A DNA stretch of 64,000 bases. Origin: Sarea resinae (taxonomy: Eukaryota). A program made the translations under genes and the position numbers. The notes beneath the pieces were generated by a model. The model saw nothing but the letters and a program-made list of their open reading frames with translations. It was not told the DNA's origin and did not search any database. How positions within the stretch are numbered: the first letter of the stretch is position 1; each line of letters begins with the position of its first letter. Below, piece after piece: positions 23,118 to 62,694 of this stretch. The stretch is from assembly GCA_026026165.1 (NCBI GenBank), contig JAPEUD010000001.1, positions 558,001 to 622,000 on the forward strand. Reading direction: 5' to 3'.

Positions 23118-24402
23118 ATGGCGAAAACGAGACCGAGCAAGAAAGAGAAGAAGCGCGAGCGGTCGGTCTTGAATGGTACCACGGGCCCGATACAAAAATC
23201 ACCGCCGACCGAATCGCCCGAAAGCCTTCTCGCCGAAGCAACGGCCCTTCTCCAGACATCACAACCGGAGCAAGCCCTCGAGCTCGCGGAAAGGGCACTG
23301 GCCCTGCTACAGCCAGCCTCTACTCCTACAGTGGCTTCGCTGCCGGCGCTCAGCATCCTTGCGGAGACGCACCTCGAGCTTGGTGATGTCGAGGGGGCAC
23401 GAGAGCGGTTCTTGACCGCCGTGTCACTCGATCCCGCCGGCGAGATTCCAGAGGAGGCTGGAGGCGGCGCGGAGAAGTTTCTATATCTAGCACAATTGTG
23501 CGAGGAGGGTGGAGCGGAGAGCGTGCAATGGTTCGAGAAAGGCGCCGCGGCGCTGAGAAGAGACATTGCAGCTCTAGAAGGGAAGAAGGCGGAGCCAGAA
23601 GAAGAATACATGGCCGAGGAGAAGAAGAGAAAATTGGCCAATGCACTCTGTGGTGTTGCGGAAGTCTACATGACAGATCTATCGTGAGTTTTCTCCGCGC
23701 CATCATCATAGTGCTACGGGACACAGACACGGGACTCGGGGCATGATGCTGACATTTCAATACAGATGGGAAGAGGATGCTGAAGCCAGGTGCGAAGCCT
23801 TGGTCACAGAGGCGTTGCTCGTGGCACCAAATACACCGGAGCCCCTGCAAACGCTGGCATCGGTTCGGATATCACAGGAGCGAGGCGAAGACGCGCGAGC
23901 AGCTCTCTCGAGAAGCATGGAATTATGGAAGGACCTTCCACCGGAAGATCCACACGTGCCGGACTTTCCAACCAGGGTCAGTCTGGCCCGGCTCCTGATG
24001 GAAACCGAGATGGAAGACGAAGCGATCGAAGTTCTGGAACGACTAGTGGGCGAAGACGACAGTAGCGTGGAGACGTGGTACCTCGGCGGATGGTGCCTGT
24101 ATCTCATGGGCCAGAAGAGAAAGGACGCGGCGCCGACGTCGTCGTCGTCACATGACGGCGACGATTGGACGGCGCTGCTAGTCGCCAGCCGAGAATGGCT
24201 ACAAAACAGTCTAAAGCTCTACAATGCACTGGAGTACGAAGATGAGAGATTAAGGGATCACGCAGTAGAATTGGTCAATGGACTCGATGGAGAGTTGGGT
24301 CCGGTGGGCGAGGAAGGAGATGACGACGGGGAGATTGGTGATGATTGGGAAGATGAGGACGACGACGACGACGATGATGATGAGCGGATGGAGGGAACTT
24401 GA
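23118..24402 (+). CDS. ACL4: TPR protein, assembly chaperone of Rpl4
   Basis: 2 exons (intron 23684-23765). Motifs AEKFLYLAQL, EVYMTDLSWEEDAE, QTLASVRISQ, WYLGGW; acidic C-terminus. Confidence 0.88.
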
Positions 24403-26188
24403 AGATAGGCCGCTTTATCAGTAGTGGAGTACAAAGTAGAGCATCTCTTGGCATCCATTCCTCTGCATATCCACGGACGATATCGATGATTTCTTCGATG
24501 ACCAAACAGGCGTGGGTTACATACTCCGTACAGTACCATGGGTACCTTATCGCTGGTTGGGTCCACATCCGCGAAAAGAAGAAAGCGCACTGTACCGTAG
24601 TAAAATTAGGCTCTCGTGGATGCGTGCGGAAGCTTAAGGTTGTTGAAGCGCATCTCGGGCTGGCTATCTATGCACAACGGACTTGGTCGGGCTAGACGCT
24701 GGGACGCTGGGCCCTTGAGATGCAGCTCAACAGAAGAAAATAAATGGGGCAGAGGGCCCGACGACGATTAGGGCTAATTCCTTTCTTTTTCTGTCTTTCC
24801 CCTTCTTCCTTTGCGGCTCGCTCGCTTCTCTGTTGTTTGGCGGCGTAGCAGCTCGCTAGCTACTCTAGATTGCTCGTATTTACTTGGAGACGGTAAGGTA
24901 TCTATGCCCAGTAACAGACAGCCCGACCAGATATTCATCGAGGCTCCCATCATCGATCGATACGAGTGATAGTGTAGATAGTGCAGAACTGCCCTTACTG
25001 TCCGTACCGCGGTAGAGCAGAGTGGAGTTGCGTACCTAGTAGGTAGAGAACGGTACGGAGCGGATACCCCGGAAGGACTTGAAGGGTACTCGAAGGGGGA
25101 ACTGGCCTGCAGATAGTGACTTGATGGAGGGTCGAGAAGGTCAGGAATCCACGGATTAGCAACTCAACGCCCCCACTCACCCTTCGCGGACACGAAGCTG
25201 ACGGTCGGCGAGTCGTATATCTGGTGTATCTTAGAGTCGCTGTAGCGTGCAGCGGACGCAAATCACGTCTCGAGCTTGACGTCGGAAGTCGTCCGGAAGT
25301 CTCTCCTTTCGCCAAATGATGAACCTGGAAGCAATCAACGCCATCAGCGCAATCAACCATCAACTTTAGCATCGACTCTACTCGAGCGCTAACGACGACC
25401 GAAGGCTGTCATAGTAATGCGTAGTCATGCGTAGTAATTCGCCGTGAGGAAGCAGGAATTACTCTAGAGTAATAGCAGGCACCGTCCCCCAGGGGAGGGC
25501 AAAGGTGAGGTTATGACTAACGCACCGAGGGCAAAGGTCGAATCGCTGATTGATCATGGATGGATGGATGGATTGACTGATTGATTGATGGATTGCCATG
25601 CAAAGTACCATGGAGAGTACCTGAGCACGTCTTTTCCATTTGCAAGCTCTTTCCTTGCCCTTCTTGCCATAACCTACCACACCTGCATCCGACTAGACTG
25701 TTATACCTTACGGAGATCTTTAATACACACAGACTCCTCATCATTCTCCTCCTCCTCCTCCTCCTCCTCCTCCTCTTCTCGAAACCTCATATTCCCCTCT
25801 CCAAACGCATCCTCTACATCAAGGTTCTGGCCTCACTTCCAAAGGTATAGTGCCATTTGCCCCCCCGATCTCCCTTCGCGGCATTGATCAATATTCGATG
25901 CAAGCCACGCAAAAGCCTCGCTTCGGTTGTGAGGTCGATATTCTAATTCGTTGCGGCACAGTCTATCGCCCAGTCGTCCATACATACATCGCATCTCGTC
26001 TTTCTGTTCGCCGGGGGTTCACCGCGAAGAAAATATCCTTGTCGATTCTGCAAGACAAGACCGATAAATTTCTCACCGCCGATCAAGTCAATGATTGAAA
26101 GATTACTGTCATTACTTGAAGCGCCTCCTCCCCGCATCTTTCTCCCCTCACTCATGCCGCCTGCAATCATATAAAGGCGGCCATTCGG

Positions 26189-29100
26189 ATGATTTGGTAC
26201 CTGTTGTACCCATTTCGCGGGTATGCTGCTCTTCCGTTCTTCCTCACTCTCGTGCCCCGTCTGCCTTCAACCGCCACGGCGGCCACTTTCGCCTTCACTC
26301 TCGTTTTCATCGTCAAGATGGCTAGCTAATCTCTGGCAACGCCCTCCAGCACGACTGAACCCCCGGTACTAAGCCCCGACCATCCAATCCGGAAGCTCTT
26401 CTTCCGTCACGGCTCATCAGCAGCACGACATCCACTATTATCGATACTCATCTCAGTCGCAATCGGGATCATCCTCTGCTATCCCTTTCCTTTCCTCTAT
26501 GCAAATCCGAGCACAGGATCCCCAAATCTTCCACATCACGTATGGACCTCCGCACGTTTATACGGGGGCGACCCCGACACCCCGGCCGATATCGAGGTCA
26601 AGCAAGCTTGGGTGCATGGGAGTTATATGAGGGCGCTGGAGCCAGAAGTACTTCAAGAGGCGTTGACGATTCAAGATGGTCTTCTTGGGCCAACCGAAGA
26701 CTATACCCGTTTCCTCTACGACGCTGAGTCCCTCAACAACAGCTTACCTGAGGTGAAGAGGGCAGCTGACGAAGGCGCTGGTCGGGATCTACATCGGCTT
26801 GGCGCGAACGAGACGAATTGGTTTTTCCATTCTCCTCTTATGTATTGGGACTGTTCGTCCTCTGCCATAGCTCAAGATGGAAACATTGTAGAGACCGTCA
26901 ATTACGAGGGTGGCCGTCGTACTACGCCTCAGAACACCACCCTCCGACCTACGATGGTCTTCGCGGGCAAGTCCTTTAAAGACGATCGCATAGTCGCTGC
27001 CGATGCTCTCGTGATTAGCCTTTTCTACCGACCTGATACCGAGGTGGGCCACGATTGGGAAGAGCGAGTTCAGGGGCTTATCAAAACCTCTGATGATCGA
27101 TGGACCCTGTTCTCCAGCGAGGGGAAGTCTCCCCGCAGTCGTCTTTATGAATATCGCTTCCAGCCGATGAGCTTCCAAGACGACTTCTTCCTGGCTTTGG
27201 CCTATCTGGCAATGGCGCTCTATGTCGTGTCAAGCCTCAAGCGGCTGAGCGCTGTCAAGAATAGGATTGGTTTGATAGTCACGGTCATCACGCAGATCAC
27301 GACCTCAATTCTGGCCAGCTTCACCATCTGCGCTTTTCTGAATATCGACCTCTCTGAAATACCCCGAGAGGCATATCCATTCGTCGTGTTTGCAATTGGA
27401 TTGGAGAACATGTTCCGCTTGATCAACGCGGTGCTAGTGACATCACCGGAAATGCCGACATCATATCGGATTGCAAATGCTCTCGGGGATATTGGCCATC
27501 ATTCCATCGCAGCCGCCGCCCAGAATCTTTTAATGCTGTGGCTATTTTCTCAGCTAGTTTCGCCTGGTGTAGCTGCCTTCTGTGCCTTTGCGGCGGTAGC
27601 TTTAGTGTTCGATTTCTTTTTCCATCTCACTTTCTTCGTTGCGGTCCTGAGCGTCGATGTCCGCCGGATGGAGTTACAAGACTCTCTGGATAGGATCACC
27701 ATTGGACAGTATGACAAGTCCGAATCATCTCGGCTGACCTGGAAAGACGCCTTGTTTCAAGGCAATATTCCATTTAGCACCAGGATCGCTGGGACGGCCA
27801 TCATGATTGCCTTCATCGTAGCCCTTAATTGGCACTTTTTCGACAACGACAATCCTTTTCAGACGTTTTCACGACTACTCAGGTTGTTCCACTCATCGGG
27901 AGACCTGGATGACCCTGATGGCACATCAATCATGCCGTCTCGCCTGAACCCCGCAAGGAGCCCCAACGCGTGGTTTCGGCTTCAGGGTCATGATACGACA
28001 AAGGAGTTTATGCGACTAGTCAAGCCTCAGGCTCACAGTTTCATTGCTCGGGTTTACGATCCTTTGGTTTTTGTTCTCGATGGGGCCGACCGTGCAGATC
28101 ACGCAACGCCCGGACAGCGCTTCTACCATGTCTTCTTCGAAGCTGTGGAGGAACATCTTCTGCCCTTCTTACTTTCATTTGTGATCATCATTGCGGGAGT
28201 CACATTGTTGATGAATTTCATGCTCTGGAACGAAATCATCGATGACGTGTCCGGTAGTCCTGATGGTGATGAGCCGGGCTTGAATGTCAAAACCGTCTTC
28301 AGAACGCACGAATTAGATGTGGTTTTGCTTGCAGCTTGTCCCAAGGGCACTTGGGCGTCGGTCGGTCTGGACCGTACGATCTGCATTTGGTCTCTTCGGA
28401 ACCCTGTTGGTCGCGCAGAACGCCAGGTTATTTCGGGTCCAACAATGAATCCCCTCTGGCCTATTGTTGCAGCTGCTCTTCACGAGTCTGGGGATTGGCT
28501 GGCGGTATGCTCTTATGCGGGCCGTATCGCTATTTGGAGTGTCTTGGAACGTCGTTTTGTCTACTCGATGATGGTCGACCTTGCTAGAGAGAAGCCATGC
28601 TCATTCTTCTTCGCACCGTCTCAGCAAGAGATTCAGGGAGCTCAGGATCCGCGGCTGATACTCATTCGACCTGATGGCTGGATGGCGGATATGGACTTGC
28701 GCTCTGGCGACTCGAGACTTCTTCAGATCTGTAAGAATCGACTGGTGTGTGCCCAAGTCATCAATACGCCCAAATCTCCATTACGTATCATCACGGCATC
28801 AAGAAGCGGGTGCATGCATCTGGCCTCGAGAACCCCGACGGAATGGATATCCGATCACGTCGAGGTCGAAGAGCCTCGTCTCTTCAATGGCAAAATGCCA
28901 CGAGTAAAAGCAGTCTTTCCCATCCCCGCTCTCGGCATGATTCTAGCAGTCAAGCTCTGCGAAGTCGACCTCATCGATCTTCAATCCCGTACTGTATTGC
29001 GCACCTTTCAGACCGGCCAAGTCAAGAACCAAACCCTCCGCGCCCTTCACTCCATCCGCCGCTTATGCCCCGCTTGTGGTGCTCCAGGGGTTGCCTCACT

Positions 29101-29869
29101 CTCCATCGTCTACACTGAAGCTGAAACCCAGAATTGCATGCTCCACACCTTCACCCCCGGCCGACCTGGTGCCCTGATCTGTCTCCGGCCGGATCGCGCC
29201 GGCCGCGGCTTTAGCTGCGTCGGTATTGAATCTACCAGCGAGTCCCTGCACTGGGTCGAGAATGCCAATGTCTGGGAAACTACCAGCATCAACGCCGTCC
29301 TAGGTGTGCGAAAACGGCCGTCTGTGGATACCGACTCCTCGTCCGGCGGTAACAGTTCAGACCGCGACGAGTGTAGCCTCGGGAGCAGCCTGCGCCGCCG
29401 CCGCAGCAATCAACGCCCGCATAAGTACCTGGGCCCGCCGCGCGGCGAGGTCGAAGACGTCTGGGAGGCCTGGACCATGTCTGCCTCGGGCGAGATCACG
29501 ACGACCTTACTGGCCGAGGACCACAATCTCGCCCTCACGCACGCTACTAGTATGGACGGGAAGAGCAAAGCCTGCGACAACAGCGGCTTTACCAGGAATT
29601 CGCCAAGCGCAATGACGGCGACGACGACGACGAGCTCAAAGACGATGGCTACCTCGGGCGAGGAACTTCTCGTGTCCCACGCCGGCCCCATCGTCCGGCT
29701 GGGCGCCCGCTCCGTGGCCGTCGGCTTCGGCAATGCCGTCAAGGTCGTCATGTTCGGCAACGAGCGCTTCAGCGACTGTGGCAGCGCCGAGGGCGGCGCA
29801 TACGAGGACCTGGAGTTTGCCGCGCTGGGACATCGTCGACGCACGACTGGGAGGCTCAAAAATCTGTGA
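26189..29869 (+). CDS. SCP1: SREBP cleavage-activating protein (sterol-sensing domain plus WD40)
   Basis: Exon 1 26189-26220 (MIWYLLYPFRG), intron 26221-26349, exon 2 26350-29869 in frame with ORF 26612..29869. Sterol-sensing domain (IGLENMFRLINAV; VLSVDVRRMEL) followed by WD repeats (SVGLDRTICIW). Confidence 0.92.
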
Positions 29870-30634
29870 AGTTTTCTGGTTTTTTTTCTTTTTTCCGGGA
29901 AGGGGAAGGAGGGGGGCCGGGAGGGGTTTGGGGCGCTGTGGCACTTTTCAAGCTCTGATTTGGCTGATGCGCGCTGGTGTGCCTGTATCTTTTTTTTCCC
30001 CGTTGCTGTGAGGTTTCGTCTTGTGTATTTGCTGGCTGCAGGATGTCGAGTGCGCTGTGTGATGGGCTGCGGGAGTGGGAGCGGGAGCGGGCGTAGGAGT
30101 GGGAGCTTAGGAAATGGGGATCTGGGACGTGGTGGGTGGGGTAAGGGGGTTAAGGGGGGGAGCAAATCCAATCAAATGGGGGGGATAAGCGGCGTTCCTC
30201 TCACTTTTGTCTATCTTATCTATTCAACTGAATCATATTGAACTGGATTACTATATATTCTTTCACTTTCCTTAGTGACTCAAGTGGCTGGCCGGGTAAG
30301 CAAGGAAAGTTAGGGCTCGAGTATTGTTCAGTGTGTGTGTGTGTGTGACTGGGTGAGAGAGAGGGGGGCGGGGCGGGGGGAGGGTGGATTATTTTGTGTT
30401 TCGAAGGGAAAGGCAAGGAAGGGTTCGATAATCGGTCTCATTGATTCAGCTCCACTTGGATACTTGGATCTATCTATCTATCCTCGAGCGTCCGTGGCGT
30501 GCGTGGCGTGCGTGGCGTGCGTGCGTGCGTGCGTGCGTGCATCCATGCATACAAACCAGCTAGCAGGAAGGGACAACGTAAAAAGAACAAGGGGGGCCCC
30601 CCACCTCATCATCAGAGGAGAACCGAGAAACGCT

Positions 30635-33583
30635 CTACCAGCTACTGCCTACATCACCACCACCCCACGAACCATCCTCGAACTTGCCGTCGTCCTTGGC
30701 AGCGTTGTTGTTGTTGTTGTTGTTATTGTTGTTGCTGCCGCCGTCCCTGAAACCAGCGTCGTCGCGGCGCTTGGACTTGTTTTCAGGTTTGTTGTCGGCC
30801 GTGGGATGGTCGATGGTACTATTGTCAGCATTACTAGCGCTAGTGCCACTGCCAGTGCCAGTGCTGGTATTGCCATTGCCATTGCCAGACTCGGCCTTTG
30901 GCTTCGGAAAGGCTTGGAAGATGTCGTTGGGGATCTCGGTCTGAGAACTGAGGCCAGGGCTGAGGCTGGAGCTGGGGCTGGAGATGTTGGGATCCTGATA
31001 GCCGTCTTGGAAACGGAAACGGAATGGGTGGCCGGTGGCTGCGTTCTCGATCGTGATCGGCTGAGCAGGGATTGGCTGAGCAGAACCAGGAGCCTCGGAC
31101 GGCGTGTTTGTGGTCTGCGGGATGGCAGAGGCCGCTTGCAGTGGTGGCAGGGCTGCTTGAGAAAGATGATCCATTCGCGGGTACGCTGAGGCTGCTTGGG
31201 CCGCTTGGAATCTCCGATATGCTTGGATCCGCTGAGCTTCGTGGGCGATAAAGGCGGCGTGAGACGAGTGAGATGCCGGAGATGGTTGGAATGGCTGAGC
31301 TGTCTGAGACGCTTGAGAAGGCAATTGAGATGATTGAGCTGCTTGGTCTCGCTGAGTTGCCTGAGACAGAAGATCGGCCTCGGCCAGTTGAGCCTGTCTC
31401 TTTCGAAAAGCGATTTCCAGTTGAGCCATGGAATTCAGCTGGGATAACTGGGCCGAGTGATGGGTTTGTTGACTGGCTTGCTGGACGACTGGAGTCGGCT
31501 GCAATGGTCGATCACCTGCGGCAACTGTCCCGGCTTGTTGGTTTGAGCGAGACAGTAACGCGCTCTGCAACGAGTCAATCATCCGCTGCGACCGCTGAGC
31601 CTCTTGCTGCAGCTGCCTAACCTGTTGCTCTGAGACTTCTGCCCGTATCTGCAGGGTGCTCTTCTGATTCTCAAGCGAATTCACATGGCTTCTGAAGGAG
31701 CTGAAGAAGCTGTCATGGTGTTTTTGTATTGCCTCATGGTGAACTTGCTTGGCTTCCTGTGCTTGCTCCAGTGCTTCATGCTTCTTTTCCAGGGTTCCGT
31801 GCTCCACCTGGAGAGCATCATACTTGTCTTGCACTGCTTGACGTTCCGAAGGTTGGTCGCAATTATCTCGCGCCAGAGCATGATACTCTCCCTTTAGTAG
31901 TGCATAGTTTCTCTTTACTGATGCATATTCTGCCTTCAATTCTTCATGCTCCTGCGCCAGGCTGAGCTTTTCCTTCTCCAGATCGTCGTAGTCGAGTTGC
32001 AGCACGTCATGGCTGTCTTGCAGATCCTCGTTTCCTTCCTGGACCAGGTCTGCTCGAGCCCGAATCTCTTCAGCTTGATCCTGGTACGCTTTAACCTCTT
32101 TCTGCAAATCTTTAATTTGACCCTCCAATTCGCGAAGCTGAGCACATGACAGAGCCTCAATATGTGGTCGCTGGCCCTCAATATCTGCTCGGACTCCGGG
32201 CAAAGGAGCTCGGGTGTCTGGCGCAGCACTGGCGTAACGTTTAATCCAAATTTGCTCTTGTGCTAGCAGCTTCTTAGTAAATTCATCCTCCTCAGTGGTC
32301 TTCCAGATAGACATTTTTAGGTCCATTCGGAGTTCGTAGTCGAGTCCTTCGTAAGCACGTACCCAACCTTGATCTAAATCATTATGAGGGAGGACCTTCT
32401 TAAGTAGACGTGTCATCTCCGTGAGATAAGTCATGACACTCCTCCCCTTGATTACGTCTTCGACAGTGAACTTCATAGCATTGACACGTTGCTCCCAATT
32501 GTCCCCCAATGCATTGTCGAAATATCGAACAAGAGTATCTATCCATAGCTCAAGACTTAGCCCAGACGCGAGGGTTTCTCGCTCAGTATCGCTCAATTGA
32601 TTGCGATACCAGTCCCAAGCTTCGCCGAGAAGACATTGGTGGAGGTGTCGACATATTTTGTCATCGCCCAGACTAGCTGCCTTTGCTCGAGCCTGTTCAG
32701 TGAACATATGAACGTCGTGAAAGACCGGATAGCCAATTTCAGCATAGGTAAGCCTCCAGCTGGATTGGCCTGCCAAAGCGGGGGCGAAGTAGCCAATCAA
32801 AGGCGCTTGGAAATCAATATCGGCCTTGGGTGGTACAGTTGTTGGCTGCAGTCCTTTACGAGGAACGCCAATGGTCTGCTTCATAGATTTGCCGATCTCA
32901 GTGTTTGTCACTGGGTTGTTCTCAGACACAGGCTTATTCTCAGCTTTCTTTGAGTCGAGCTTGGCTAGTCAGTCGGTCAGCTGTAACTCACTAGTATCTC
33001 TGGAGGAAAGTTTCATACCTTTGACTCGTTGAACCCATGACGAACGCACCATAGAAGACCCATCTGAAGCAAAATAATCATCTACATGCTTGGTTAGATA
33101 TACCTGATTCGCATCATGTCACGGCGAGATCATACCTTCAGTCCGGTCCAACGCGAAGTCTAAACGTTGCATCAACCTATCCTCAAGGTCCTCGATCTTT
33201 AGGGAATTGATGCCAATCACTCTCTCACTAATCAACTCCATGAGTCGATCCTCCAAGGCCTTCATCTTCTTCGCATTCATGTCGAGTGTCTTTTTTGCAA
33301 TCTTTTCGGCCATCCTCGCCGCTAGATTCTCGACTTCGTCGGCTACCGTAAACGCATCACTCTGCTGTGTTTCTGTCTCTGCCACGGAGATCGACCAATC
33401 AGACGTCAGCTGACGTTGCTCAGGCCCATCGCGATTGTTGTTAGTGCTGGCCGAGGTGGCAGTGGGCGTGTCGATGTCGATTTCTGAAGACTCATCGTTG
33501 GTCCAATCATCAGATTGGTAACTCTCTGGGTAGTGCCGGCGAGCCGCGGGAGAGTGGTAAGAGCCTGTTTGAATAGAAGACAT
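30635..33583 (-). CDS. Gag capsid-like domain / coiled-coil / Q-N-rich protein, about 940 aa (candidate domesticated retrotransposon gag)
   Basis: Exons 33583-33136, 33063-33019 and 32964-30635 splice in frame through two phase-1 GTATGA..YAG introns. Segment 32800-32230 (IGYFAP..FHDVHMF..LHQCLLGEAWDWY..WIDTLVRYF..AYEGLDYELRMDL) resembles fungal Ty3/gypsy-type Gag. Confidence 0.75.
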
Positions 33584-34862
33584 CCTCAAGGAAGAAGCTT
33601 AATGTCGTGTGATGACAGCAAGGTGGGAGTAGGGGGAAAGGATGGAGAGAGCGAAGAAGTTGCAGGATGAGAGGTAAAGGTTCCAGAACGCGCGATGCAC
33701 TTATGCGTGAATGGCGACAATCAGGGCAGTCACTGGTAGGAAACAGGCGTGAGGTTGATGAGCCAGAGACAGAAGTTCAGGTAGAGTAGTGAACAAAGCT
33801 GAAGAAGTGGATGGTCAAGCAAGTTGAAAGAGGGAGAATAAGTTGCTGAAAGAGACCAGAGGCAGATGAGAATAATAACTGGTCAAGTGGTTCAGACCGA
33901 TCTTATATGAAGTCGTGGTAGGAAGACCTAAGCGTGAATAAATTCTCTGTTGGAGCCTCGAGGTGCATTGACATCCAGTGAGTGAAGGACACCAGGCAAG
34001 CTTTCCAACAGCAGGGTGTTTCAGCTAAAGCATTCATTCCGAATTCGACGAGGGTGATAGTGAGGCTGCAGACAGCTAGAAGATCTTCCTAAGTGCAAAG
34101 TGAATGAAGAAAGCATCGATTATTAGTGAACTCTACAGGTGTTCGTTCAGCCTCAGTATGTAAGCAAATCAGAACCAAAGGTTGCAGTGAATCCAATGCC
34201 ATGTATCAATAGTTGTGGTAATGCAGTCAATAGAGAACTTCAGCGCCTCTTTCTATTAGTTCTTTTGACAGACTGCTTTCCCAAAAACCCCGAGGGTGAG
34301 GAGATCTGGAGTCACTATTGCACGATGATGCTCGAATACTAGATACCCGTGTCAGATTAGGTAACGTGATAGCATCTCTAGTGGTGTAATCTCGGGCGGT
34401 GTTGATAGTGATGGTGACGGTCGAGGGATATCAAAATGCTATTCTCCCAATACTCGCATGCCGTACCAGCTCTCACGTTTCTCCGGCCTCATGGAAGTAG
34501 AGGAGCAGGCCGGGGCCCAGCCTAGATACCCCATCGCTGTCAAAACTTTCTCCTTTACTTTGCGGAACTCAGTCATTGTTCTCATGCCTGTGTGTGGAGC
34601 TTTGAGATGGAATACCATGATTGATACGTACTGGGTGAAACCCCCTATTCTACACCATTCGTAGCTGGCTTTTGAAACATCCCTATTGCTTTCGCCTTTC
34701 GCCTGTCGCCTTTTCTCCTCCCGCAAAAAAATTTTGAATCCGCAACCGTCAAGTCCCAATATCCATGTCCAGTATGCCTGCAATGAACGCTCATAAATGT
34801 GAGGTCAAGCACCAAAGAGCAGAGATCAAGCACCATCAGGTAACAAGAGATAGCAAGCCGCG

Positions 34863-36280
34863 TCATTCAGTAGCAGCGGCAGGAGAGGTAACCGAAATGG
34901 GGCCTTCTTCCACGATATCGAGGTCTTCAGGCTTGACTCCTTTTCCACCATCCCCGACGCCATCCGCGGCTGGATCACCGTTTGCGACATCGCCATCAGC
35001 AACATCGCCGATAGGGAGATCCTCGTCAGTAGCGACAGCTCCGTCGCGTCGAAACCAAGGCACCTCCCCACCGTCAGCGATGGCCATTGGCAGTCGCCGA
35101 ACAGGCAAATCCTCCTCAAGTCTCAGCTTCCGCTTCCTTCTCCTGCCTACCACTTCTGCACCATCCTCGCCATCATCCACAGCATACTGGCCCCTGCTTA
35201 CTGCCGCCGCCAGCTCCGCTTCCAACACATTTGCCAGTACGAGCTCCTTGGCTTGCCATTCTTGAAGCCTTTGCTTCTCGAGAACTTCGACCTCTGCTCT
35301 GAGGGTTGTTGATTCCTGTTCGGCCCAATGGACCTGGCGGCGGAGGAGGCGATATAGCTGCGAGGGTGGCATAAGCGATTCAGCTTTGGTGAACTGGCAG
35401 TCGGCGGGCCAGTCCCAAGGAGATGGACGATCGTCAGCCGTGGGAGTGTTTCCGTTTCCGTTGCGCAGTGGCGATGGACGGTCAGATGATGCTGATCGCT
35501 GAGCGTTCTGTGGGGGACGAGTCGTAAAGATGAGCTTGAGGCGCTGGTTCTTGTTCGGCTGCTGCTGCTGTTGTTGGGCAGTTTGGTGGTGCTTAGGCAC
35601 CGGGTCTGATGGACGTAGAGCTTCTGTCTCATGGACAGTGCGCATGTGTTTTGCAAGAGCATCAGAGCGGGTGAACGAGCGATCGCACTCTGTAATTGTC
35701 TTAGTTTCTATAGAGATAATATTCGCGATAGCAGCTCACCTGGCAGAAGGCAAAAGAACGGTTTCTCTCTTGTATGACTCCTCATGTGTGCGCGCAGCGC
35801 ATATCCACTAGCATGCGGCATACCCTTCCTACTACACTCTTCCCACTCGCACGAATACTTCTTCTGCCTCACACCAATATGATCATCATGAATATGTGCG
35901 ACCAGATTGTCCATGTTGCCCATTTCACCAACAGGACAGCCATCCCAACGACAAATAGTGACTTGTTCATGGCCAGAAGGCTCCTCATCGCCGCCCATCG
36001 TGACAGTAGCAGTGATCGGTGAGCCAGGGACGTCACCTTCTGTGTCAGTCGAGATGTCGGTTTCCGTGTCGTGGTCGTCATTGTCAAGGACAGAGAGTGA
36101 GGCTCGCTGATCCCATGAAGGGCCACAAGTACGCTGGCGCTTTGCAGGCGGCATGCTGGGAGCGTCGAGGCCGGTTTCTGGGGCATCGGAGCTGTTCTCG
36201 AAGTTGTCTTCAGCTTTGAGGTCGTCGTTGAAGTCCTCAGAGGACAGCGAAGAGAGTGATGAGCCAGGTGATTCGGCCAT
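34863..36280 (-). CDS. IEC1: C2H2 zinc-finger INO80 complex subunit (Iec1-like)
   Basis: 2 exons (intron 35739-35690). Three GLI-like fingers: CRWDGC..HIHDDH, CEWEEC..HMRSHTREKPF, C..ECDRSFTRSDALAKHMRTVH, then LRRQVHWA..EWQAKELVL. Confidence 0.88.
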
Positions 36281-36283
36281 GGT

Positions 36284-36343
36284 TGCGGAGGAGCGTGCGG
36301 AGGAGCGTGTGGAGGAGCGTGCGGAGGAGCGTGCGGAGGAGCG
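36284..36343. repeat. 12-bp minisatellite (TGCGGAGGAGCG) x5 directly upstream of the Iec1 ATG
   Basis: Five tandem units, one with a single substitution. Confidence 0.92.
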
Positions 36344-37174
36344 TGGCAGCAGTGAAGCCAGTGAATGAGTAGACCGTGATCTTATGTGTCGATTGCCCAG
36401 GTTGCTGCCTTTGCTGCTCGTGCAGTTATTGTCTTTCTGACGCTGGAAGGTATGGATCCCTTCGTTAAACTGGAGCTGAGTGTAGATCCCCTACGTATTG
36501 CGACGCGGGCATGTTGTGCAGTTTCCCTATCCAGCCTCGGGCTCGGCCTTGGGGGGCTCTTTTTCAAACAAACATTTATGGATTAGTCAACTCTGTTTCC
36601 TTATTCTTAGGCATTGTTCTCGCCGGAAGCTGATCCAAGAAATTGTGTCTTTATATCACTTGTCAATTTATCGCGATAGTCAAAAGCAAGAGCCACTAAA
36701 GGTCAACAACAAGGCAATGTCTATTCGTCTGAACAATACGTTCAGCAACAACCGCATTCTATTTCAGCCTGGATAGGGTAGAACATTGATATACAAAGTG
36801 TGTTAAATATACTACTATACCACGTAGGCTTTCTTTATTAACTTCTGCTGAGCACCTTTGAAAAGGAGGAGAACTGAAAGCTAGCAACAAAGGAACCATT
36901 GGCATGCTGCCTATCGATATTCGGCAACAAGAGGATTCTACTGAAAAATAATGCTGAAGCTGAACAAGACCTAGACAGGAAGATGCTTACTTTAGACAGT
37001 ATCGATAAGAGCTTTAGCTGTAGACTTCTTAAACTGCTTATTAGCTATAAAAACAGAGAAGATAGCCTGCATTAGAAAGTATTTCTCACTAATTCTCCCC
37101 CCCCTTGGTCGAAATATCACCAGTTCTAGCACTCTCAACTGACTTCTAGATCTACTACTATCATATTCAGCAAG

Positions 37175-37438
37175 ATGTGGTTGGGATTGGCTCCGAAGCA
37201 CAATTGCGGCCACCAGGCCACCAAGACCATTGATACGCAATGCGCGTCTGGATTTGACGAGGACACCCAGTGCTGTCTAGGTGCCGGTTTTGTGGCCTTT
37301 GGTAAGCCCGAAATCGATGGAAAATGCCGCGACTGCTTGGCTAGAGAAGCTGCTGAAGCGCTTTTGGGGCTCCGCGGGCCCACCCGCTCTTCCCCATGGC
37401 GTCGTTTCCTTGGCTCTCGTCACAGTCATCGGGGTTAA
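37175..37438 (+). CDS. Candidate small Cys/His-rich orphan protein (87 aa)
   Basis: TATAAAA at 37046-37052, CAAG-ATG start context, pattern CGH..C..CC..CxxC. Confidence 0.4.
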   Translation: MWLGLAPKHNCGHQATKTIDTQCASGFDEDTQCCLGAGFVAFGKPEIDGKCRDCLAREAAEALLGLRGPTRSSPWRRFLGSRHSHRG

Positions 37439-40400
37439 GCTGGAATCCTCGAACTCACTTTTCAAGTTCCGGATGCTCTATACAGGTTCTTCTATTTAGA
37501 CTTCCTCGATCTTGGCTAGCTTCCTGGTCAAGTGTCTTTTCTCCCCTCGTTTTCTTTGATTCACGGGCGGTTGCCATCTTTCACCCAAGTCACCCCTTTA
37601 GGTTTCCTTTATACGGTCTGGGTTGGCTTAAACAATGGAAGAATTCTGAACAAAAAGGAAAGCGAATCAGACCTGTAGTCGTGACCAGTGACTCGGAAAA
37701 GGTAAGAGTAGATATCCATATGACGGTAGCCGACGACATCTCTGATACCAAACAAAATCCATTCACCCAAAAAGTAGACGCTGAACAGAAACTTTTCTCA
37801 GGACAGCGTCGACCGCAGGGGCCATGCCGTTTCGCATTTTCGTATTTGACATCGAACCTTTGACTGATGGTCAAAGCGAGTCTGCAGTCGCTGTCGCTGT
37901 CGCCGTCGCCGATCCTGATCCTGATCATGTACCATATAGCAACATATTTTACAGTCCGGCCTGTCGTAGGGATGAGTGCCCGGTGGCAATCAGAAGGAGC
38001 GAGTTGCTAGAGTTCAAAGACGGCCAAATTGCCCGCCCAGAGAGATATCAATAGAGATTTGCCACATTCTTTTGCTACTACACCTCACGGTCAATGATGA
38101 AGAGCGTACTCAGAGAAGAATAGCACCTCGTCGGCACAAATATCCGGTGTGCAAATAACGTGCGTATCGAAAAGCTTGGGATGCTCTGGCCCATGTTGAC
38201 ATCTCGACCGCATCTAATAATACAACAGTCGTCCAATGGGCTACTGAGGCCCTTGTCGACAGAGACGAAAGGATTCAGACAATCGTCTGCTCGCTCCCGA
38301 GCGTGGCTCCACCTCGGCGAGTCTTTCGAGAAACAGTGCCTACTATGGAGCATCGGAAAGGAGCTTCATCTATGAGACATCCATCCTCTCGCCCGTCAAT
38401 ATCAAAGTCACTCTTCAATCTATAGGTACCGCGTCATCTGCAATGACGAAGGATGCCTCTGACCCAAGGAGGCCGAATGGCAAGGCCCTGAAAGGCCTCT
38501 TGCACCGAAGCCGTGCGCGGCTAATCCACCATGGAGTTCATGGAAGCCGCAACAGCGAGGGCTGAGCCTTGGATTCCAGACGGCATTGACCGAGCAGGTT
38601 CGCTGGCCTGTCAAGGTCGATCTGTGGGGTAGTCTCTGCAAGGATATTGTGGAGCACGACGGACGAGCGAACAGCGACGACGGCGAATGAAAAGCGGAGA
38701 AAAACCAGCAATCCGAATACGGAGCTTCCTGTGTCCATCCATGGACGGTAGAAGGCGTTGAGCAAAGTCTTGAGGGAAAGCAATGACGGAAAGTTCCTCA
38801 TGGCGTGAATCAAATCCATCCTTCATGATCTGCAAATGAAAAGTCGTATGTACTTCGTGTACAAAGCACTCGTAAGGCTACTCACCCTACTAACCTGACC
38901 TCACTTACGCAGTATGGTAGAGTAGGTAGAATACCACATTCGTATTTCATCTGTTGCTAGCATCTCGATCCCGCGTGCATTATTACTTAGGGTCTGTCTG
39001 TTCTGTATCTCATCGCCGAAGATGGGCCCGAGTATTCAGACTAACCAAATGCCGCCCCGCGCTGACGGTACCGCGAAGACAGGTAACGGTAGCTGGCCGC
39101 CGGATGAGGGCATTCCCAGTCCTAGTCGTCATGATGATTTCTAATTATTCAGCAGCCCTGGCGTCGTGTGGCCGAAGCAACCACGTACGAGGATCAGCGA
39201 TCTGGGCCAGGGAGAATCAGGGCACCATTGCTGGCATTGGTGCTCTCCACCGGTAGATAGTACTACTTCAGTATGTAGTCACCGCTCGTATCTATGATCA
39301 TCTCGTAGACTCCAGGGTTCGCCAGCCATGTTGGCGCTGGGCCCGTTCAGAGGAACTTCGTACCTGGGCTTACGTGAAAGGACGGGACCGTAGTTCAGGA
39401 ACGGACGCATACTACTACGAAGTATGTACTCGGAGTCCTCTAGAGTACAGCTGCTAGGCAAAGGTATTGCACCTAAATACCTAGGTACCTTAAACCTACT
39501 AAGCTACTAGGTAGCTAGTAGCTGGTACCAGCATCTGTAGACTCGTCAGACTCGCCCTCAAGAGCAGGCAAAGCAGGAACACGTCGCGGAATAGGAGCGT
39601 GCACCTGATTTGGTCTCTACGCAAGTCAAGGGGATACGATGGCACTCTAGTACCGGGAAAGTGATAGGTCCAAGCAACTGGAATGCGATGAATGAGAATG
39701 CAGAGACACCCTGTTCTACTGCGCGGTAGCCGGACGTGGATCCATCTGCTGCCGGACATATGCAGCCCTGGTCACCTCTTTCATGCTCAATTCTGGACAG
39801 AGCATCCAATTCTACGGCTGTACGAATCGAAGAGTACCGAGATACCGTCAATGCGAGATGTACAAATCTGAAAGGGCACATGGTTCACATGGAAGCTTTC
39901 GCGTTCATCCCATCTCCACCCCTGGAGACACCATCCATCCCTACTATTCGTACTCTCCAGAGGCAATACTGAACGGCGGAAAATGAAGGTCATTGGACAC
40001 ACTGTACCATGACCTTGCTCGGAGCATCAAACTCTAGATTGCTCACTCGGTCCTACATGACCGGACTCGGCATTGGGAAAAGGTAGGCATTTCCCCACAT
40101 TCTGGCTTTTGACGGATGGAACCCACGACGGACAACAGACCCTTGGACGTAAAGGAGAGTGCGATACCGCCGTAGATTCTTCGTACATACGCCCCGTTTC
40201 CGCTTTCCCTTTGCCTTTTCCCTCTTCCTTTCCCTTGAGCCGTCGCATGGCACACGGCTCGGCCCCTGTCCCCTACGCGGCTTCACCACCTCCATTCTGA
40301 CCTAGTGGCCATCGCTTTGGCCTCGCCGGTCTGTTCTGACATGTATTCTACTGGTCGCCGTCGACAATCAGAGTCAGGGCGAACGTCTTGGACCCTGCAA

Positions 40401-41493
40401 TCGCTGTCAGGTACTGTAAGCCACTTCACTCTCACGCGACAGACACTGCAGAGTACAGCAGCACGACGAGGAAAAGATCCGAGTGGAGAGATATAGTTGA
40501 TCGGTGGGGCCAAGGGCCAGCGATCAACGATCAGCGACCAAGAACCATTCGCATCCTTTACGACCCATTCCGCCTGAGCCGAGTCAGGAGTCAGGAGTCG
40601 GATCGGGGGACCCTTGGGGTAGACCCTACTTTGCACTTGGGCACACCAAAGGCGCACGCACTAGGTCTCGACTACCTCCACCGCTGCAGCAAATCCCCCG
40701 CGATATTTCGACTAGCCGAAGGACTGGATACCTAGAGATCGACCGACCGACCGATCCGTGAGCTTGTCGACGAGCTTGGACAAGGCCCGACAACCTACTT
40801 TACTCGTACATGCCTTACATACTACGATGTATAGTAGTGGCAGACCAGCTGGGCCAGCCAGCCCAGCCAGACCAGCCAGACCACCTCTATCCAGCCATGG
40901 AGTCATGGATGTGTCCCAAATGCTGTTGGTCCACGCCAATTCCCTGCTCTCCGGTGTACGAAGTACATGAATAGATTAATTTTTTCTCGTTATTGTTCCA
41001 CCGCCGATCCGCCATCCATGGATATAGCAGCCATTGCAGCCATTGCAGCCATTGCAGCCATTGCAGCTCTCAGGGCCCGAGGGTTTCCTCCCCCCCGGTC
41101 TTATTTGGATATATCCTGGATGAAACTATGCCGATGCATAACGTAGCTTCTAGTATTGAGTTTAGCCTTCGTTCTGACCGCACATCAGTTGCCTTACGGC
41201 AGTAGGCCCGTTTTCTCGGACACTGGCAATTGCAGGTCTCAAAGCTCTTAACTCGACTGCAGCCCTCTGCCGTGTGGGCTGAACGTCGAGAGAAGTCTTC
41301 ACCTTCGTCGTTGCTATGGAGCATTGCATGGCTTCGTCTGATTGATTTTCTTTTCTTCTGTCTGTACAGTGTTATCGGAGCGTCGAACGAGGCAATCGAC
41401 TGGATGTAAAGTCATCATTTCTGGCCCGCCATTTCGTCTTTGGCCCCCCTTCGATAGGTCGTCCTGACCAGTGGTTCCGTTGAATCCACGGCA

Positions 41494-43025
41494 ATGTCGT
41501 CCTCGGCGGGCGCTGATGCTGCTTCTGCAATGCAGAAGCAATATAATCTCTCGGAAAATCAAACCCCTGGGGTGATTGGGGCCGTGATCACGCTCATGAT
41601 CATCGCCACTGGGTTTGTGGGACTTCGAGCGGCTTCGAGATCAGTCTCGGCCATGCCGCTGGCGGCGGACGACTATGTGATGGCCGTTGCTCTTGTTTGC
41701 CGACTCCAATGCTCACATATTGCAATACGTGCCATACTGACATCACGACAGATATTGGCTTATGGCACAGGCATCTCCAGTATCCTAGGTGAGATTCTCT
41801 GCATCCTCTTCGGAGGACTCGTGATTGGGACCTGGACTGACTGTCCGATGCTATCCAGCATGTCACTACGGGGTTGGTAAACATATTGCATCACCATCGG
41901 TGAATCTCTTCTTGATGTCAAAAGTCAGTCTATCAAATCCCTGCGATCAATTGACCGCCTAAGATGAATCGCAGGTGCTTTGGGCATACGAAATGCTTTA
42001 CAACAGCGTTGTTGCCGCCATCAAAGTCTCCGTTATTCTATTTTACCATCGACTGTTTCCGATTCCTCGATTCACCATCACGCTCGGCTGCTGCGCCTTT
42101 CTCGTCATCAGCTGGTGGATCGCCGTCATGTTCACTACTCTCTTCCAATGCCAGCCCTTGCACTATGCCTGGGACCAGTACCGATACCCCAACATGAAGG
42201 GTCACTGCATCGATGCGGAACACTTCTTCATTGGCAACTCCATCGCCAGTTGTCTCACGGACGTTATTATCCTCATCGTTCCCATCCCAATGATCTGGAA
42301 GCTCCAGGTCCCACGTGCCCAGAAGTTAGCTATCTCCAGCATTTTCCTCCTCGGCAGCTTGTACGTTTTCCCCTTCTTTCTCTCCGATCTACACGTCTGC
42401 TAGACATCAAGCTGACTTTACCCGCGTCAGTGTCTGCATTGCCTCCATTCTCCGCATCTACTTCCTCACTTTCCTCACCCGCTCCGAAGACCTGACATGG
42501 AATCTCGGCCAATCCATCATCTGGTCCTGCGTCGAACCCTGTATCGGCATCGTCTCTGCGTGCCTCCCCACCCTTCGTCCCCTCCTCCGTTATGCCTTCC
42601 CCAGGTGGTTCAACAACAGCCGCTTCAAGGGTTCGTCGGGCGGCCAACGCACCACCCGTCACCATGGCTCTGCAAACTCGTCGGGCGGCGTCATACTGAC
42701 CACGGGCAAATCCGGGCGCAATTTCACGCGTCTGCAGGACTTGGGAGCCGGCTTGAAGGCCGCCGGAGCGAAACTAAGACCTGATGATGAGGTCGAGTTG
42801 ACATATAATATCTCGCGCGCGGACAGCTTCAGGGGTCCAAGAGGAGACGAGGAGGCGGGGTTCGCGCCTGGTGGTGGGTTCTTCGGCGAGGCCATGGGCA
42901 TGGGCATCACAGTCAAGCAGGATTTTCACTGGTCCGAGTCGCAAGTGGATCCGAGGAGTCATGACGAGACAGAGACAGAAGAGGAAGAGGAGCATCAGCA
43001 CCAGCACGACGAGCTCCGAAAATGA
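41494..43025 (+). CDS. PTH11-like (fungal rhodopsin-domain) integral membrane protein without CFEM
   Basis: 5 exons. Motifs ADDY, HYGVGKH, KVSVILFYHRLF, QCQPLHYAW, TDVIILIVPIPMIWKLQ, WSCVEPCIGIVSACLPTLRPL. Confidence 0.92.
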
Positions 43026-60479: not shown

Positions 60480-61060
60480 TCATCGAATCGAACTCTCTCT
60501 CTCTCTCTCTCTCTCTCTACCTCTCTCTAGCGCTCTTCCTCCATACCTCTCTTTCTGGCTCTCTCTACTTCTACCTCGACCTGATTGATTGATTGATTGA
60601 TTCATAAATCGATAGATCCAGAGCCCGAACAATTGTTGGTTTTGATTGGAGGCATGTGGGTAGGTAGGTAGGTAGATATAAACCGATAGAATTGGTATAC
60701 CTAAGGTAGACACAACCAAGACCCAAACCAGCCCGAATGTCTAGACCTAACAGAACTAAACCAAATCTAAAAGAACAGACATGAATAGAACCGAACCGAA
60801 CAGAATGAATGGCATAGGTCGAGTCAAGTCGAGTCGAGTCGAATCAAGTCAAGAAGAAGAACAAGGGGAGGAGGAGGAGGAGGAGGAGGAAAGGGGTGAT
60901 GTATAGAAGAACGTCTGGGTCTGGGTCTGCATGAGGTCTGAGTCTGGATTTGTATGAGGTCTGGGTCTGGACCGGGGTCTGGATGACTATATTGAATTGC
61001 ACAGCACTCAACTGCATCGGACTGTACTGCACCGCACCGCATTGCTGCCCCCAACTCGGC
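60480..61060. repeat. Microsatellite-rich intergenic region between the convergent PUF6 and DPB4 genes
   Basis: (CT)n, (GATT)n, (GGTA)n, (GAGTC)n, (GGA)n and (GTCTGG)n runs. Confidence 0.85.
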
Positions 61061-61189
61061 CCCCTCCATCGCTGACCGAGACGAAAACCAAAACTAATAC
61101 TAGTGACGCCCAAAAAGCCCCCGGGAGAACGAGGCCCAAGCCGAAAGCCGAAAGGCCAAAAAGGCCAAAGCCCAAAAAGGACAACGCGA

Positions 61190-61664
61190 TCAATCCGAGT
61201 CCTCGTCGCCCTCGTCTTCGTCGACGGTATCGTCGCCGTCGCCATCCCCGTGCCCGTGCCCGCGTCCAGCATCGGCTCGACGGCGCGCGGCTTGTGAGTC
61301 GTCGATGACGCGGTCGCCGTCGTCCTCTTCCTCATCCTCCTCCTCGTCATCTTCGTCGTCGTCTTCGACTTCTTCTTCTTCGTCGACGTCTTCGTCTTCG
61401 TTCCCGCCGGACGATCCCTCTTCCGCTGTTTCAAACTCCTCGCCGCCGTCTTCCTCCTCCTCTTCTGCGTCGGCGTTGGCGTCTTCGACTTCCGTGTCCC
61501 CTTCTTCTGTACCGCTTGGTTGTTTTGGTTGTTGAGGACCAGGTTTCGCGGCTGATGTAGATGTAGATGTAGATAAAGCTTTGGGTTTGGCGGTAGGCGT
61601 GGAACCGTGGTCGAGTGTCGAGCGCCGTGGCTTCTTGTGCGGATGTCTGCCTCCTCCTTCTTCC

Positions 61665-61696
<32 letters not shown>

Positions 61697-62694
61697 GTCG
61701 ACCTCCTCGTCGCCTGGTTCTGCTGCTGTTTTCGATGCTTTTTTAGTCCGCGAGGACGAAGACGGCGGGGCGGTGGGCGGCGAGGTGGTGGCTGGCTTTT
61801 TCTGTCGGGAGGTCTTTTTCGCAGCTTGTATTTCAATGAATCCTAGAGTGCGTAATATAATCAGACAACGAAAATCCTCAAGTCCTTGTTTCTCATATAA
61901 AGTCGTCTCGATAGCTGATGAGGGTAAGACAAACTTTCTATCTCGGCCTCCAGGCGGGGGTTGAACCATGCGAGCCCCAATCCGTTCATGGATTCCACGA
62001 CGTCTTGCGGCATTATGGTCTTCTTGTTGTTTCGTTGGGCGTTTTCGTTGGCGCTGTTGGATGTGTACATTCGAGTTAGCTGGCGCTGCGCTGCTCTGTT
62101 CTGCTGTCTCGTCTCTCCAATGTGGAAATTATCATCCGCCTCTATCATACTCTCGCTCTTCTTCCTCCCCTTCATCATCCCCTTCTCTCTCTTTCTATCA
62201 TCTATAGAGGCCTCCCACCCATCAGACCCCCGCTGTCAAGCAAACACCCTAGCGCAGCAGATAGAAGAAAAGACACATACGTCGAAGCGAGATAGTTCAC
62301 GAACACGGTCGCGCTCTTGCAAATGGCGGTGACAGCATCCTTCTGGATCTGCGTATTCGGGGGCAGCGAGCTCTTGGCCAGCCGCTGAACGATGGTACGA
62401 GGAAGTAGCAGGTCCTGGTGATCAAATAATGTCACACGTTAGCCCCCCTCATTGCACGTCCTGGACCTTGCTGGGTCTTGTGTGTGCACGCAGCAACAGT
62501 TTGCTTGCGATTTCACCTTGCTTCGATATAGCGGAAGACTTTGGGGGCTCGATTTGAGGGCTCTCTCGCAGAAGTGCACGTACATCGATGCTGACACCTC
62601 CTCCTGCGCTTGCAGCAGCAGCGGTACCGTCTTTCGCAGGCGTGCTCTCGTCGCCGGTGGCGGCTTTGGAGCCGTCGCTCTTGCGCGGGGGCAT
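61190..62694 (-). CDS. DPB4: DNA polymerase epsilon / ISW2 histone-fold subunit Dpb4 with a long acidic tail
   Basis: 4 exons (62694-62584, 62414-62281, 62053-61935, 61842-61190). MPPRK..SIDDLLLPRTIVQRLAK..IQKDA..KSATVFVNYL..ANENA..KKTIMPQDV histone fold. Confidence 0.92.

Follow-up and report, generated by a model that had tools for sequence, protein, structure and literature searches.

Gag genes taken over by their hosts are familiar from animals (Arc, PNMA, RTL/PEG10, and Fv1), and very few are known in fungi. Here we describe a gene of the fungus Sarea resinae that is almost certainly derived from a retrotransposon gag and that the host may have kept as one of its own genes. The gene occupies 30635..33583 (start to stop codon) on the minus strand of the window, by which we mean the whole 64-kb stretch of contig JAPEUD010000001.1 that was analyzed and to which all coordinates refer, and it encodes a protein of 946 amino acids.

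The closest co-opted systems described in fungi derive from other kinds of elements. Wang & Han (2021) reported three fungal co-opted gag genes, Crtg12-14, of which two come from Ty1/Copia and one from Bel-Pao, and none from Ty3/gypsy; their paper states that no earlier case of fungal gag co-option had been documented (PMC8321522). According to the same text, Crtg12-14 are single-copy, and the authors' definition of them drew on shared synteny in two or more families, on expression, and on selection; Crtg14 has a putative GT-AG intron and is fused to a host gene (PMC8321522). Another case is Drt2, a restriction factor of Saccharomyces cerevisiae. As described in PMC13709905, Drt2 is derived from Ty1/copia, has 169 amino acids, consists of just the C-terminal domain (CTD) of the capsid (CA), and is 91.5% identical to the Gag that it targets; purifying selection, transcription, and restriction were all demonstrated. 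That paper also explains how restriction works: Drt2 and p22 bind the CA-CTD of Gag and poison the particle lattice (PMC13709905).

In the Sarea protein, residues about 191-439 (32159..32905, minus strand) are a genuine Ty3/gypsy-type Gag capsid with N- and C-lobes, homologous to the Gag part of ascomycete chromovirus polyproteins; profile search, phmmer, tblastn, and the predicted fold all identify it. A sequence-only reading of this stretch had recognized a Gag capsid motif pattern by eye. Indeed, the motifs LIGYFAP, FHDVHMF, LHQCLLGEAWDWY, WIDTLVRYF, and AYEGLDYELRMD are present in the protein, the consensus drawn from 75 aligned relatives carries them too, and the protein keeps 8 of 8 positions that are nearly invariant in the family. 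A phmmer search with residues 209-434 against 1.84 billion representative proteins found 229 proteins at E ≤ 0.001, 12 at E ≤ 1e-10, and only the query itself at E ≤ 1e-30. The best non-self match had E = 6e-13. The best foreign matches are 27-34% identical over most of the domain, and a short fragment (P0090) is 44% identical over ~100 residues. As a guard against circularity, we also made a profile from those 75 relatives that left out the Sarea protein. This profile scored the database entry for the Sarea protein (P0003) at 128.1 bits over residues 191-439 (E = 4.8e-32 at the size of 1.84 billion proteins).

Several of these relatives are recognizable as retrotransposon proteins. We scanned the 149 listed foreign relatives against Pfam (35 of them at E ≤ 1e-3 and 114 at E ≤ 1e-5), and 8 of the 149 have retroelement domains (protease, reverse transcriptase [RT], RNase H, integrase, or chromodomain). 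P0086, P0087, P0096, and P0136 each contain RT, RNase H, an integrase zinc-binding domain, a Tf2 SH3 domain, and a chromodomain; P0015 (annotated from Podosphaera aphanis) and P0081 carry an RT; P0009 has an aspartyl protease; and P0120 has a chromodomain. A profile search added three more complete polyproteins (P0155-P0157), of which P0157 is annotated from Peltaster fructicola. In the polyproteins, the stretch that matches the Sarea protein lies near the N-terminus, ahead of the protease, RT, RNase H, integrase, and chromodomain, which is the position of Gag in a Ty3/gypsy chromovirus. Furthermore, a feature search of the ESM Atlas returned Retrotrans_gag clusters for 15 of 30 matches, with a top score of 0.95. 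A phmmer search of the protein against PDB sequences found weak matches to coiled coils only, and tblastn of the CA part against a phage collection found no match.

Two features of the relatives themselves are worth recording. In P0004, P0006, P0007, P0029, P0086, P0087, and P0136, a C2H2-like finger (C..C ... H...H/C) lies between the capsid and the protease, which is the usual place of the CCHC knuckle; the finger of P0086 is Pfam's zf-C2H2_6, and P0096 has a classical CCHC. P0139 (1120 amino acids) has a Gag-like stretch at residues 287-460 together with a Fungal_trans transcription-factor domain at 808-931; it is a further gag fusion or else the product of a merged prediction.

The predicted fold of the domain is that of a capsid, so the outcome that the sequence-only reading had named as refuting it, the lack of such a predicted fold, did not occur. 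(The fold was predicted with AlphaFold2 from a 76-row alignment.) The model of the CA part has a mean predicted local distance difference test score (pLDDT) of 86.7 and a predicted template modelling score of 0.71, and it is all-helical apart from a short strand at the N-terminus, with ten helices in total. We compared it to 48,161 representative chains with VIA-align. Of these, 33 reached Z ≥ 5, every one of them a retroviral or LTR-retrotransposon capsid (LTR is short for long terminal repeat), and the first unrelated chain has Z = 4.8. The top matches were the Copia capsid (Z = 10.4) and the CA-CTD of PEG10 (Z = 10.1, with a root-mean-square deviation [rmsd] of 2.5 over 84 residues), along with the C-lobes of dArc2 (Z = 9.4) and Arc (Z = 9.2), the dArc1 capsid (Z = 8.6, rmsd 3.7, 160 of 164 residues), Drt2 and MOAP1 (both Z = 8.5), PNMA2 (Z = 8.0), and the N-terminal domain of the Ty3 capsid (Z = 5.4). 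The capsids of murine leukemia virus (MLV), Rous sarcoma virus (RSV), and human immunodeficiency virus (HIV) were also among the matches. The full-length capsids (dArc1, Copia, PNMA2, MLV, RSV, and HIV) align over model residues about 5-210, that is, over both lobes. VIA-align itself warns that helical proteins can reach middling Z scores by chance. For this model, that caveat appears to be outweighed by the uniformity of the capsid matches, the coverage of both lobes, and the agreement with the sequence evidence. Foldseek had no PDB match at E ≤ 0.001; its best E was 0.076, and its top rows were dArc1, the CA-CTD of PEG10, the HIV capsid, Arc, and PNMA2. A two-copy complex prediction for the CA part scored 0.00, in a run that did not use the alignment, a score that says nothing either way about self-association.

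We are highly confident that the gene stands alone at this locus, without the rest of the element. When we used 11 Gag-Pol or Gag-protease relatives as tblastn queries against the window, 10 of the 11 gave one match each, all within 32015-32884, and no remnant of pol was found; the remaining query, P0096, matched nothing in the window at E ≤ 0.01. There is no second copy of the CA part in the window. No pair of LTRs was seen, as there is no direct repeat of at least 30 nt within 24000-42000, and a pair that had diverged by only 5% would have been detected. That region holds a single inverted pair of 31 nt with 71% complementarity, which we read as chance. The protein has neither a CCHC or C2H2 pattern nor the D[ST]G motif of the protease, and it contains just four cysteines in total. 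Finally, the locus does not have the signature of repeat-induced point mutation (RIP): TpA/ApT is 0.55 and (CpA+TpG)/(ApC+GpT) is 1.46, both within the range of the neighboring genes. Thus, these searches agree with the sequence-only reading, which had reported no protease, RT, integrase, CCHC knuckle, LTR pair, or RIP damage.

That reading had also joined three exons across two introns into an intact frame of about 940 codons. The frame has 946 codons, with canonical intron signals, and the spliced translation is identical, letter for letter, to P0003 ("MAG: hypothetical protein M1819_000177 [Sarea resinae]"), which is known from one member sequence on one contig of 950,568 bases. Reading along the minus strand, exon 1 (33136..33583, 448 nt) starts with ATG, encodes residues 1-149 and the first base of codon 150, and ends at AAG|GTATGA. 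Predicted intron 1 (33082..33135) is followed by exon 2 (33019..33081; 63 nt or 21 codons), predicted intron 2 (32965..33018), and exon 3 (30635..32964; 2330 nt including the stop codon), which lies inside an open frame of 777 codons. Each predicted intron has 54 nt and is preceded by AAG, giving an AAG|GTATGA donor, and each ends with a TAG acceptor; the branch site is CTAAC in intron 1 and CTGAC in intron 2. If exon 1 were not spliced, its frame would meet a stop codon within predicted intron 1, and the locus without splicing consists of two frames of 159 and 777 codons. With both strands of the window counted, the strict intron pattern (GTATGA..CTRAC..YAG) is found at 3 places, two of which are the adjacent introns of this gene; the mean over 30 shuffles was 1.3. 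A looser pattern is no commoner than chance would give (74 in the window versus 92.6 in shuffles), so only the strict pattern carries weight. The third strict site is at 62054-62150 on the minus strand, spans 97 nt, and falls within or close to the open frames at 60844-62128.

After the capsid, the protein is predicted to form a helical hairpin, with two helices of ~100 residues each (residues 436-536 and 542-651; 31523..32170, minus strand) that are predicted to be a coiled coil, as judged by a single-sequence model and the ESM Atlas. When AlphaFold is given the full protein as a single sequence, the model is poor on the whole (pLDDT 46.6), and the hairpin (~215 residues) has a pLDDT of about 75-80 even in this mode. 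With residues 435-720 as the query, the ESM Atlas found generic coiled-coil hairpins only (best feature score 0.81). We read four autonomous relatives by eye and saw no long helical or coiled-coil stretch after the capsid in any of the four. Instead, their post-capsid regions have stretches rich in Q, P, G, and R, then a C2H2-like or CCHC finger, and then the protease. Because we saw no counterpart in these four relatives, the hairpin looks particular to the Sarea gene.

Is this a host gene? We consider it an even call that the host keeps this gag as one of its own genes, with co-option either complete or still under way. In structure, what we found is what a co-opted gag should look like: a Gag-derived open reading frame that is intact, stands at a host locus, and has lost the remainder of its element. 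Of all single substitutions in the coding sequence, 4.15% would create a stop codon, and the probability that the frame would survive neutral divergence is about 0.003 at 5% divergence and about 8e-6 at 10%. The composition, codon use, and RIP indices of the gene are within the range of the neighboring genes. Overall, several features favor a selected host gene: the 2.8-kb frame is intact and has intron signals of the strict kind, the protein has the hairpin, the composition resembles that of host genes, and the neighbors are housekeeping genes. A selected host gene is thus partly supported. The sequence-only reading proposed a candidate domesticated Gag, and part of that proposal stands, namely the Gag capsid, its solitary state, the intact frame with intron signals, and the host locus; domestication in the full sense, with expression, fixation, and selection, would go beyond this, and no ortholog was found among about 15 billion proteins.

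Several points weigh against a co-opted host gene. First, we found neither an ortholog nor a close paralog among those 15 billion proteins, whether by word-based searches at near, shorter, or longer lengths, by phmmer, or by profile. The gene may be lineage-specific or young, or the absence of orthologs may reflect unsequenced relatives of this fungus. Second, the gene model is a deposited prediction, and its source is a metagenome-assembled genome; the one sequencing run listed for this sequence is a DNA run, which may be where this DNA came from, and no RNA run is among those listed. Third, the correlation in codon usage is weak evidence: the gag gene has r = 0.54, and the host genes themselves range from just 0.23 to 0.79, so we rejected codon usage as a discriminator. 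Fourth, the tail of ~185 residues is microsatellite-like; for instance, (GTT)10 on the plus strand gives N10. Fifth, neither Retrotrans_gag (PF03732) nor Ty3_capsid (PF19259) from Pfam matches the protein, even at E ≤ 10; there are weak coiled-coil matches only. However, these two models also match none of the 149 listed relatives at the thresholds given above. The Pfam result for the Sarea gene is blank because the whole Gag lineage is invisible to Pfam, and as the entire lineage goes unrecognized, the non-match says little about membership in the fold class. Sixth, either mechanism that we consider below, restriction or a scaffold, is drawn from analogy only. Lastly, the Sarea capsid has a very long terminal branch in the family tree (3.94 substitutions per column, versus a median of 0.82). 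This tree came from a quick IQ-TREE search with 115 rows, which were the Sarea protein and 114 of the 142 matched relatives; we left out the repeat protein P0132 and 27 relatives in which the match spanned less than 150 residues of the query. In this tree, the Sarea capsid is weakly placed (Shimodaira-Hasegawa-like approximate likelihood ratio test, 82-89) in a group that includes the pol-bearing proteins P0015, P0086, and P0136. Given the weak placement and the very long branch, we do not draw a donor lineage. A long branch fits long independent evolution as a host gene and an unsampled element lineage of an isolated fungal class equally well.

The leading alternative, which we consider less probable yet a serious contender, is that the gene is a recently immobilized relic: a gag fragment or gag-only copy of an unsampled Ty3/gypsy element specific to Sarea, whose frame is intact only because the copy is young, whose "introns" are bridges that a gene predictor laid over a stop codon or a frameshift, and which has no function in the host. 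A relic would account for the gene being an orphan in the protein searches, for the two frames of 159 and 777 codons at the unspliced locus, and for the loose intron-like pattern being as frequent as chance. Long terminal branches also occur elsewhere in the tree (5.19 for P0092 and 3.42 for P0151), the tail is low-complexity and microsatellite-like, and autonomous relatives likewise have long disordered Q-rich stretches after the capsid. On the other hand, a young copy should retain LTRs or pol, and there are none in the 64 kb. No LTR is detectable, and a pair with only a few percent of divergence would be, so a relic that is young must have undergone clean deletions on both sides of the gene, at least two such events. 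The strict intron pattern occurs just 3 times in 128 kb of strand, and two of these are here, both of 54 nt and both restoring the frame. The hairpin after the capsid has no sequence match in the relatives and was not seen in the four polyproteins that we read. And a parent element with over 34% identity across most of the domain was found in no length class of the searches.

It is far less probable, and in our view very unlikely, that this is the gag gene of an LTR element that is still mobile or non-autonomous, such as a gag-only element mobilized in trans whose LTRs are too short or too diverged to be seen. In its favor, 141 of the 149 listed relatives have no retroelement domain in Pfam, though many of these are from short contigs. 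Yet there is no direct repeat of at least 30 nt around the gene (24000-42000), the intergenic DNA that separates it from the flanking host genes amounts to just 765 bp and 1.28 kb, the frame contains intron signals, and the window has no second copy. Least credible of all is a chance resemblance between unrelated all-helical proteins: the Pfam gag models do miss the domain, the best Foldseek E of 0.076 is weak, and helical bundles may reach middling Z scores by chance, but the query-free profile gives 128 bits, 10 polyproteins or Gag-protease proteins match reciprocally by tblastn, 33 of 33 rows at Z ≥ 5 are capsids with the full-length ones aligned over both lobes, and the ESM Atlas returned Retrotrans_gag clusters for half of its 30 matches (top score 0.95).

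A phmmer search of the full protein against the 149 listed relatives found no similarity outside the CA part. Residues 1-76 are predicted to be disordered, and helices begin at residue 77 (77-179, pLDDT about 44-58). For the first 215 residues, the comparison was with the stretches ahead of the capsid in the 54 relatives that have at least 90 residues there; jackhmmer returned no match at E ≤ 10, and the scores from three subfamily profiles were negative or near zero. At the other end, residues 762-946 (30638..31192, minus strand) form a low-complexity tail that is rich in Q, S, A, N, and G and is predicted to be disordered, from its composition and the model. Two other open frames overlap this low-complexity 3' part of the gene, in antisense or in another frame: 30314-31189 (plus strand, 291 codons) and 30649-31434 (minus strand, 261 codons). 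We read both as by-products of the repetitive composition and not as genes. Directly upstream of the ATG, the coding strand is pyrimidine-rich (CT-rich) at 33584..33890. Pyrimidine-rich stretches are common in fungal promoters, and this stretch hints at a promoter or a 5' untranslated region.

As judged from the sequence, the locus is between ordinary host genes. A SCAP-like gene is convergent with the gag gene, with 765 bp between it and the stop codon of the gag gene; the sterol-sensing domain and WD40 repeats that we found in it agree with the SCAP neighbor named in the sequence-only reading. A C2H2 zinc-finger gene, which the sequence-only reading put down as Iec1, lies 1.28 kb upstream of the gag gene, and CHD1, Mon2, a DEAD-box helicase, and a CPL-domain gene are farther away. 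Two overlapping open frames on the minus strand, 34863-35735 and 35708-36490, have one C2H2 finger each (zf-C2H2 and zf-C2H2_15) and are probably exons of a single zinc-finger gene. The 765-bp spacer between the stop codon of the gag gene and the SCAP-like gene contains a (GCGT)n / GCGTGCGTG tandem repeat at 30488-30540. There is also a (GT)8 at 30331-30347, and there are G-rich hexamer repeats at 30069-30106.

If the gene is a co-opted gag, then we can propose how it arose and what it might do. The gag of an ancestral ascomycete element of the Ty3/gypsy chromovirus type would have become a solo capsid gene, with loss of the zinc finger, the protease, RT and RNase H, the integrase, and the LTRs. 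The protein would multimerize through its CA lobes and its coiled-coil segments, and it might co-assemble with the Gag of related Ty3/gypsy elements that reside in the genome and poison their particle lattice. By analogy with Drt2, Ty1 p22, and mouse Fv1, restriction by lattice poisoning would be the most probable role. (Fv1 is derived from Gag as well and is also cited in PMC13709905, which supports the analogy.) The second option, again by analogy, would be a self-assembling scaffold or capsid like Arc or PNMA2.

Our literature searches found no fungal co-option of a Ty3/gypsy-derived gag. It is therefore possible, though we put this forward tentatively, that this is the first to be described: a long-kept host gene for a two-lobed capsid that gained introns and a coiled-coil hairpin, and that builds capsid-like assemblies or poisons the lattice of a resident chromovirus. 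If the gene is expressed and conserved, then it would offer a tractable fungal system for studying how a host re-uses a full capsid domain, and it could show whether a capsid protein with an added coiled coil becomes a restriction factor or a scaffold. Also, because this large family of ascomycete chromovirus Gag proteins is not recognized by Pfam, similar gag-derived genes would be hidden from routine annotation.

How does the Sarea gene compare to known systems? Its nearest counterparts are the Gag proteins of ascomycete Ty3/gypsy chromoviruses (P0086, P0087, P0096, P0136, and P0155-P0157), which have the same two-lobed capsid and share the motifs GYF.P, (Y)RDV..F, L..CL.G.A..WY, W...L..RF, and LD..LR with it. 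The identity to the chromovirus polyproteins is only 25-31%, however, and the Sarea gene lacks the C2H2 or CCHC finger, the protease, RT, RNase H, the integrase, the chromodomain, and the LTRs. In contrast, it has intron signals and the ~215-residue hairpin after the capsid, a hairpin not seen in the four polyproteins that we read.

Like the Sarea gene, Drt2 (the endogenized CA-CTD of Ty1' Gag, PDB 9rxy) is a fungal gag-derived open reading frame at a host locus from which the rest of the element is gone, and its CA-CTD fold matches the Sarea model (Z = 8.5, rmsd 2.6 over 86 residues). Unlike Drt2, the Sarea gene is derived from Ty3/gypsy, encodes 946 amino acids with both CA lobes and coiled coils, is at most about one-third identical to known elements, and is known from its sequence and a model. 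Crtg12-14 and the Sarea gene are all fungal and gag-derived, and the putative intron of Crtg14 (PMC8321522) parallels the predicted introns in Sarea.

The animal genes Arc/dArc1, PNMA2, PEG10/RTL, and MOAP1 have the same origin in the Ty3/gypsy superfamily as the Sarea gene, the same capsid fold, and the same pol-less state. They arose independently, and structural alignments give an identity of just 5-15%. Conservation and expression are established for the animal genes, as is capsid assembly for some of them, whereas the Sarea gene is known as a sequence and a predicted structure. In Arc and Fv1, the coiled coil is N-terminal to the capsid-derived part. The long hairpin of the Sarea protein is instead C-terminal to the capsid, and this architecture, a capsid followed by a coiled-coil hairpin, is unusual, being unlike that of Arc, PNMA, RTL, Fv1, or Drt2.

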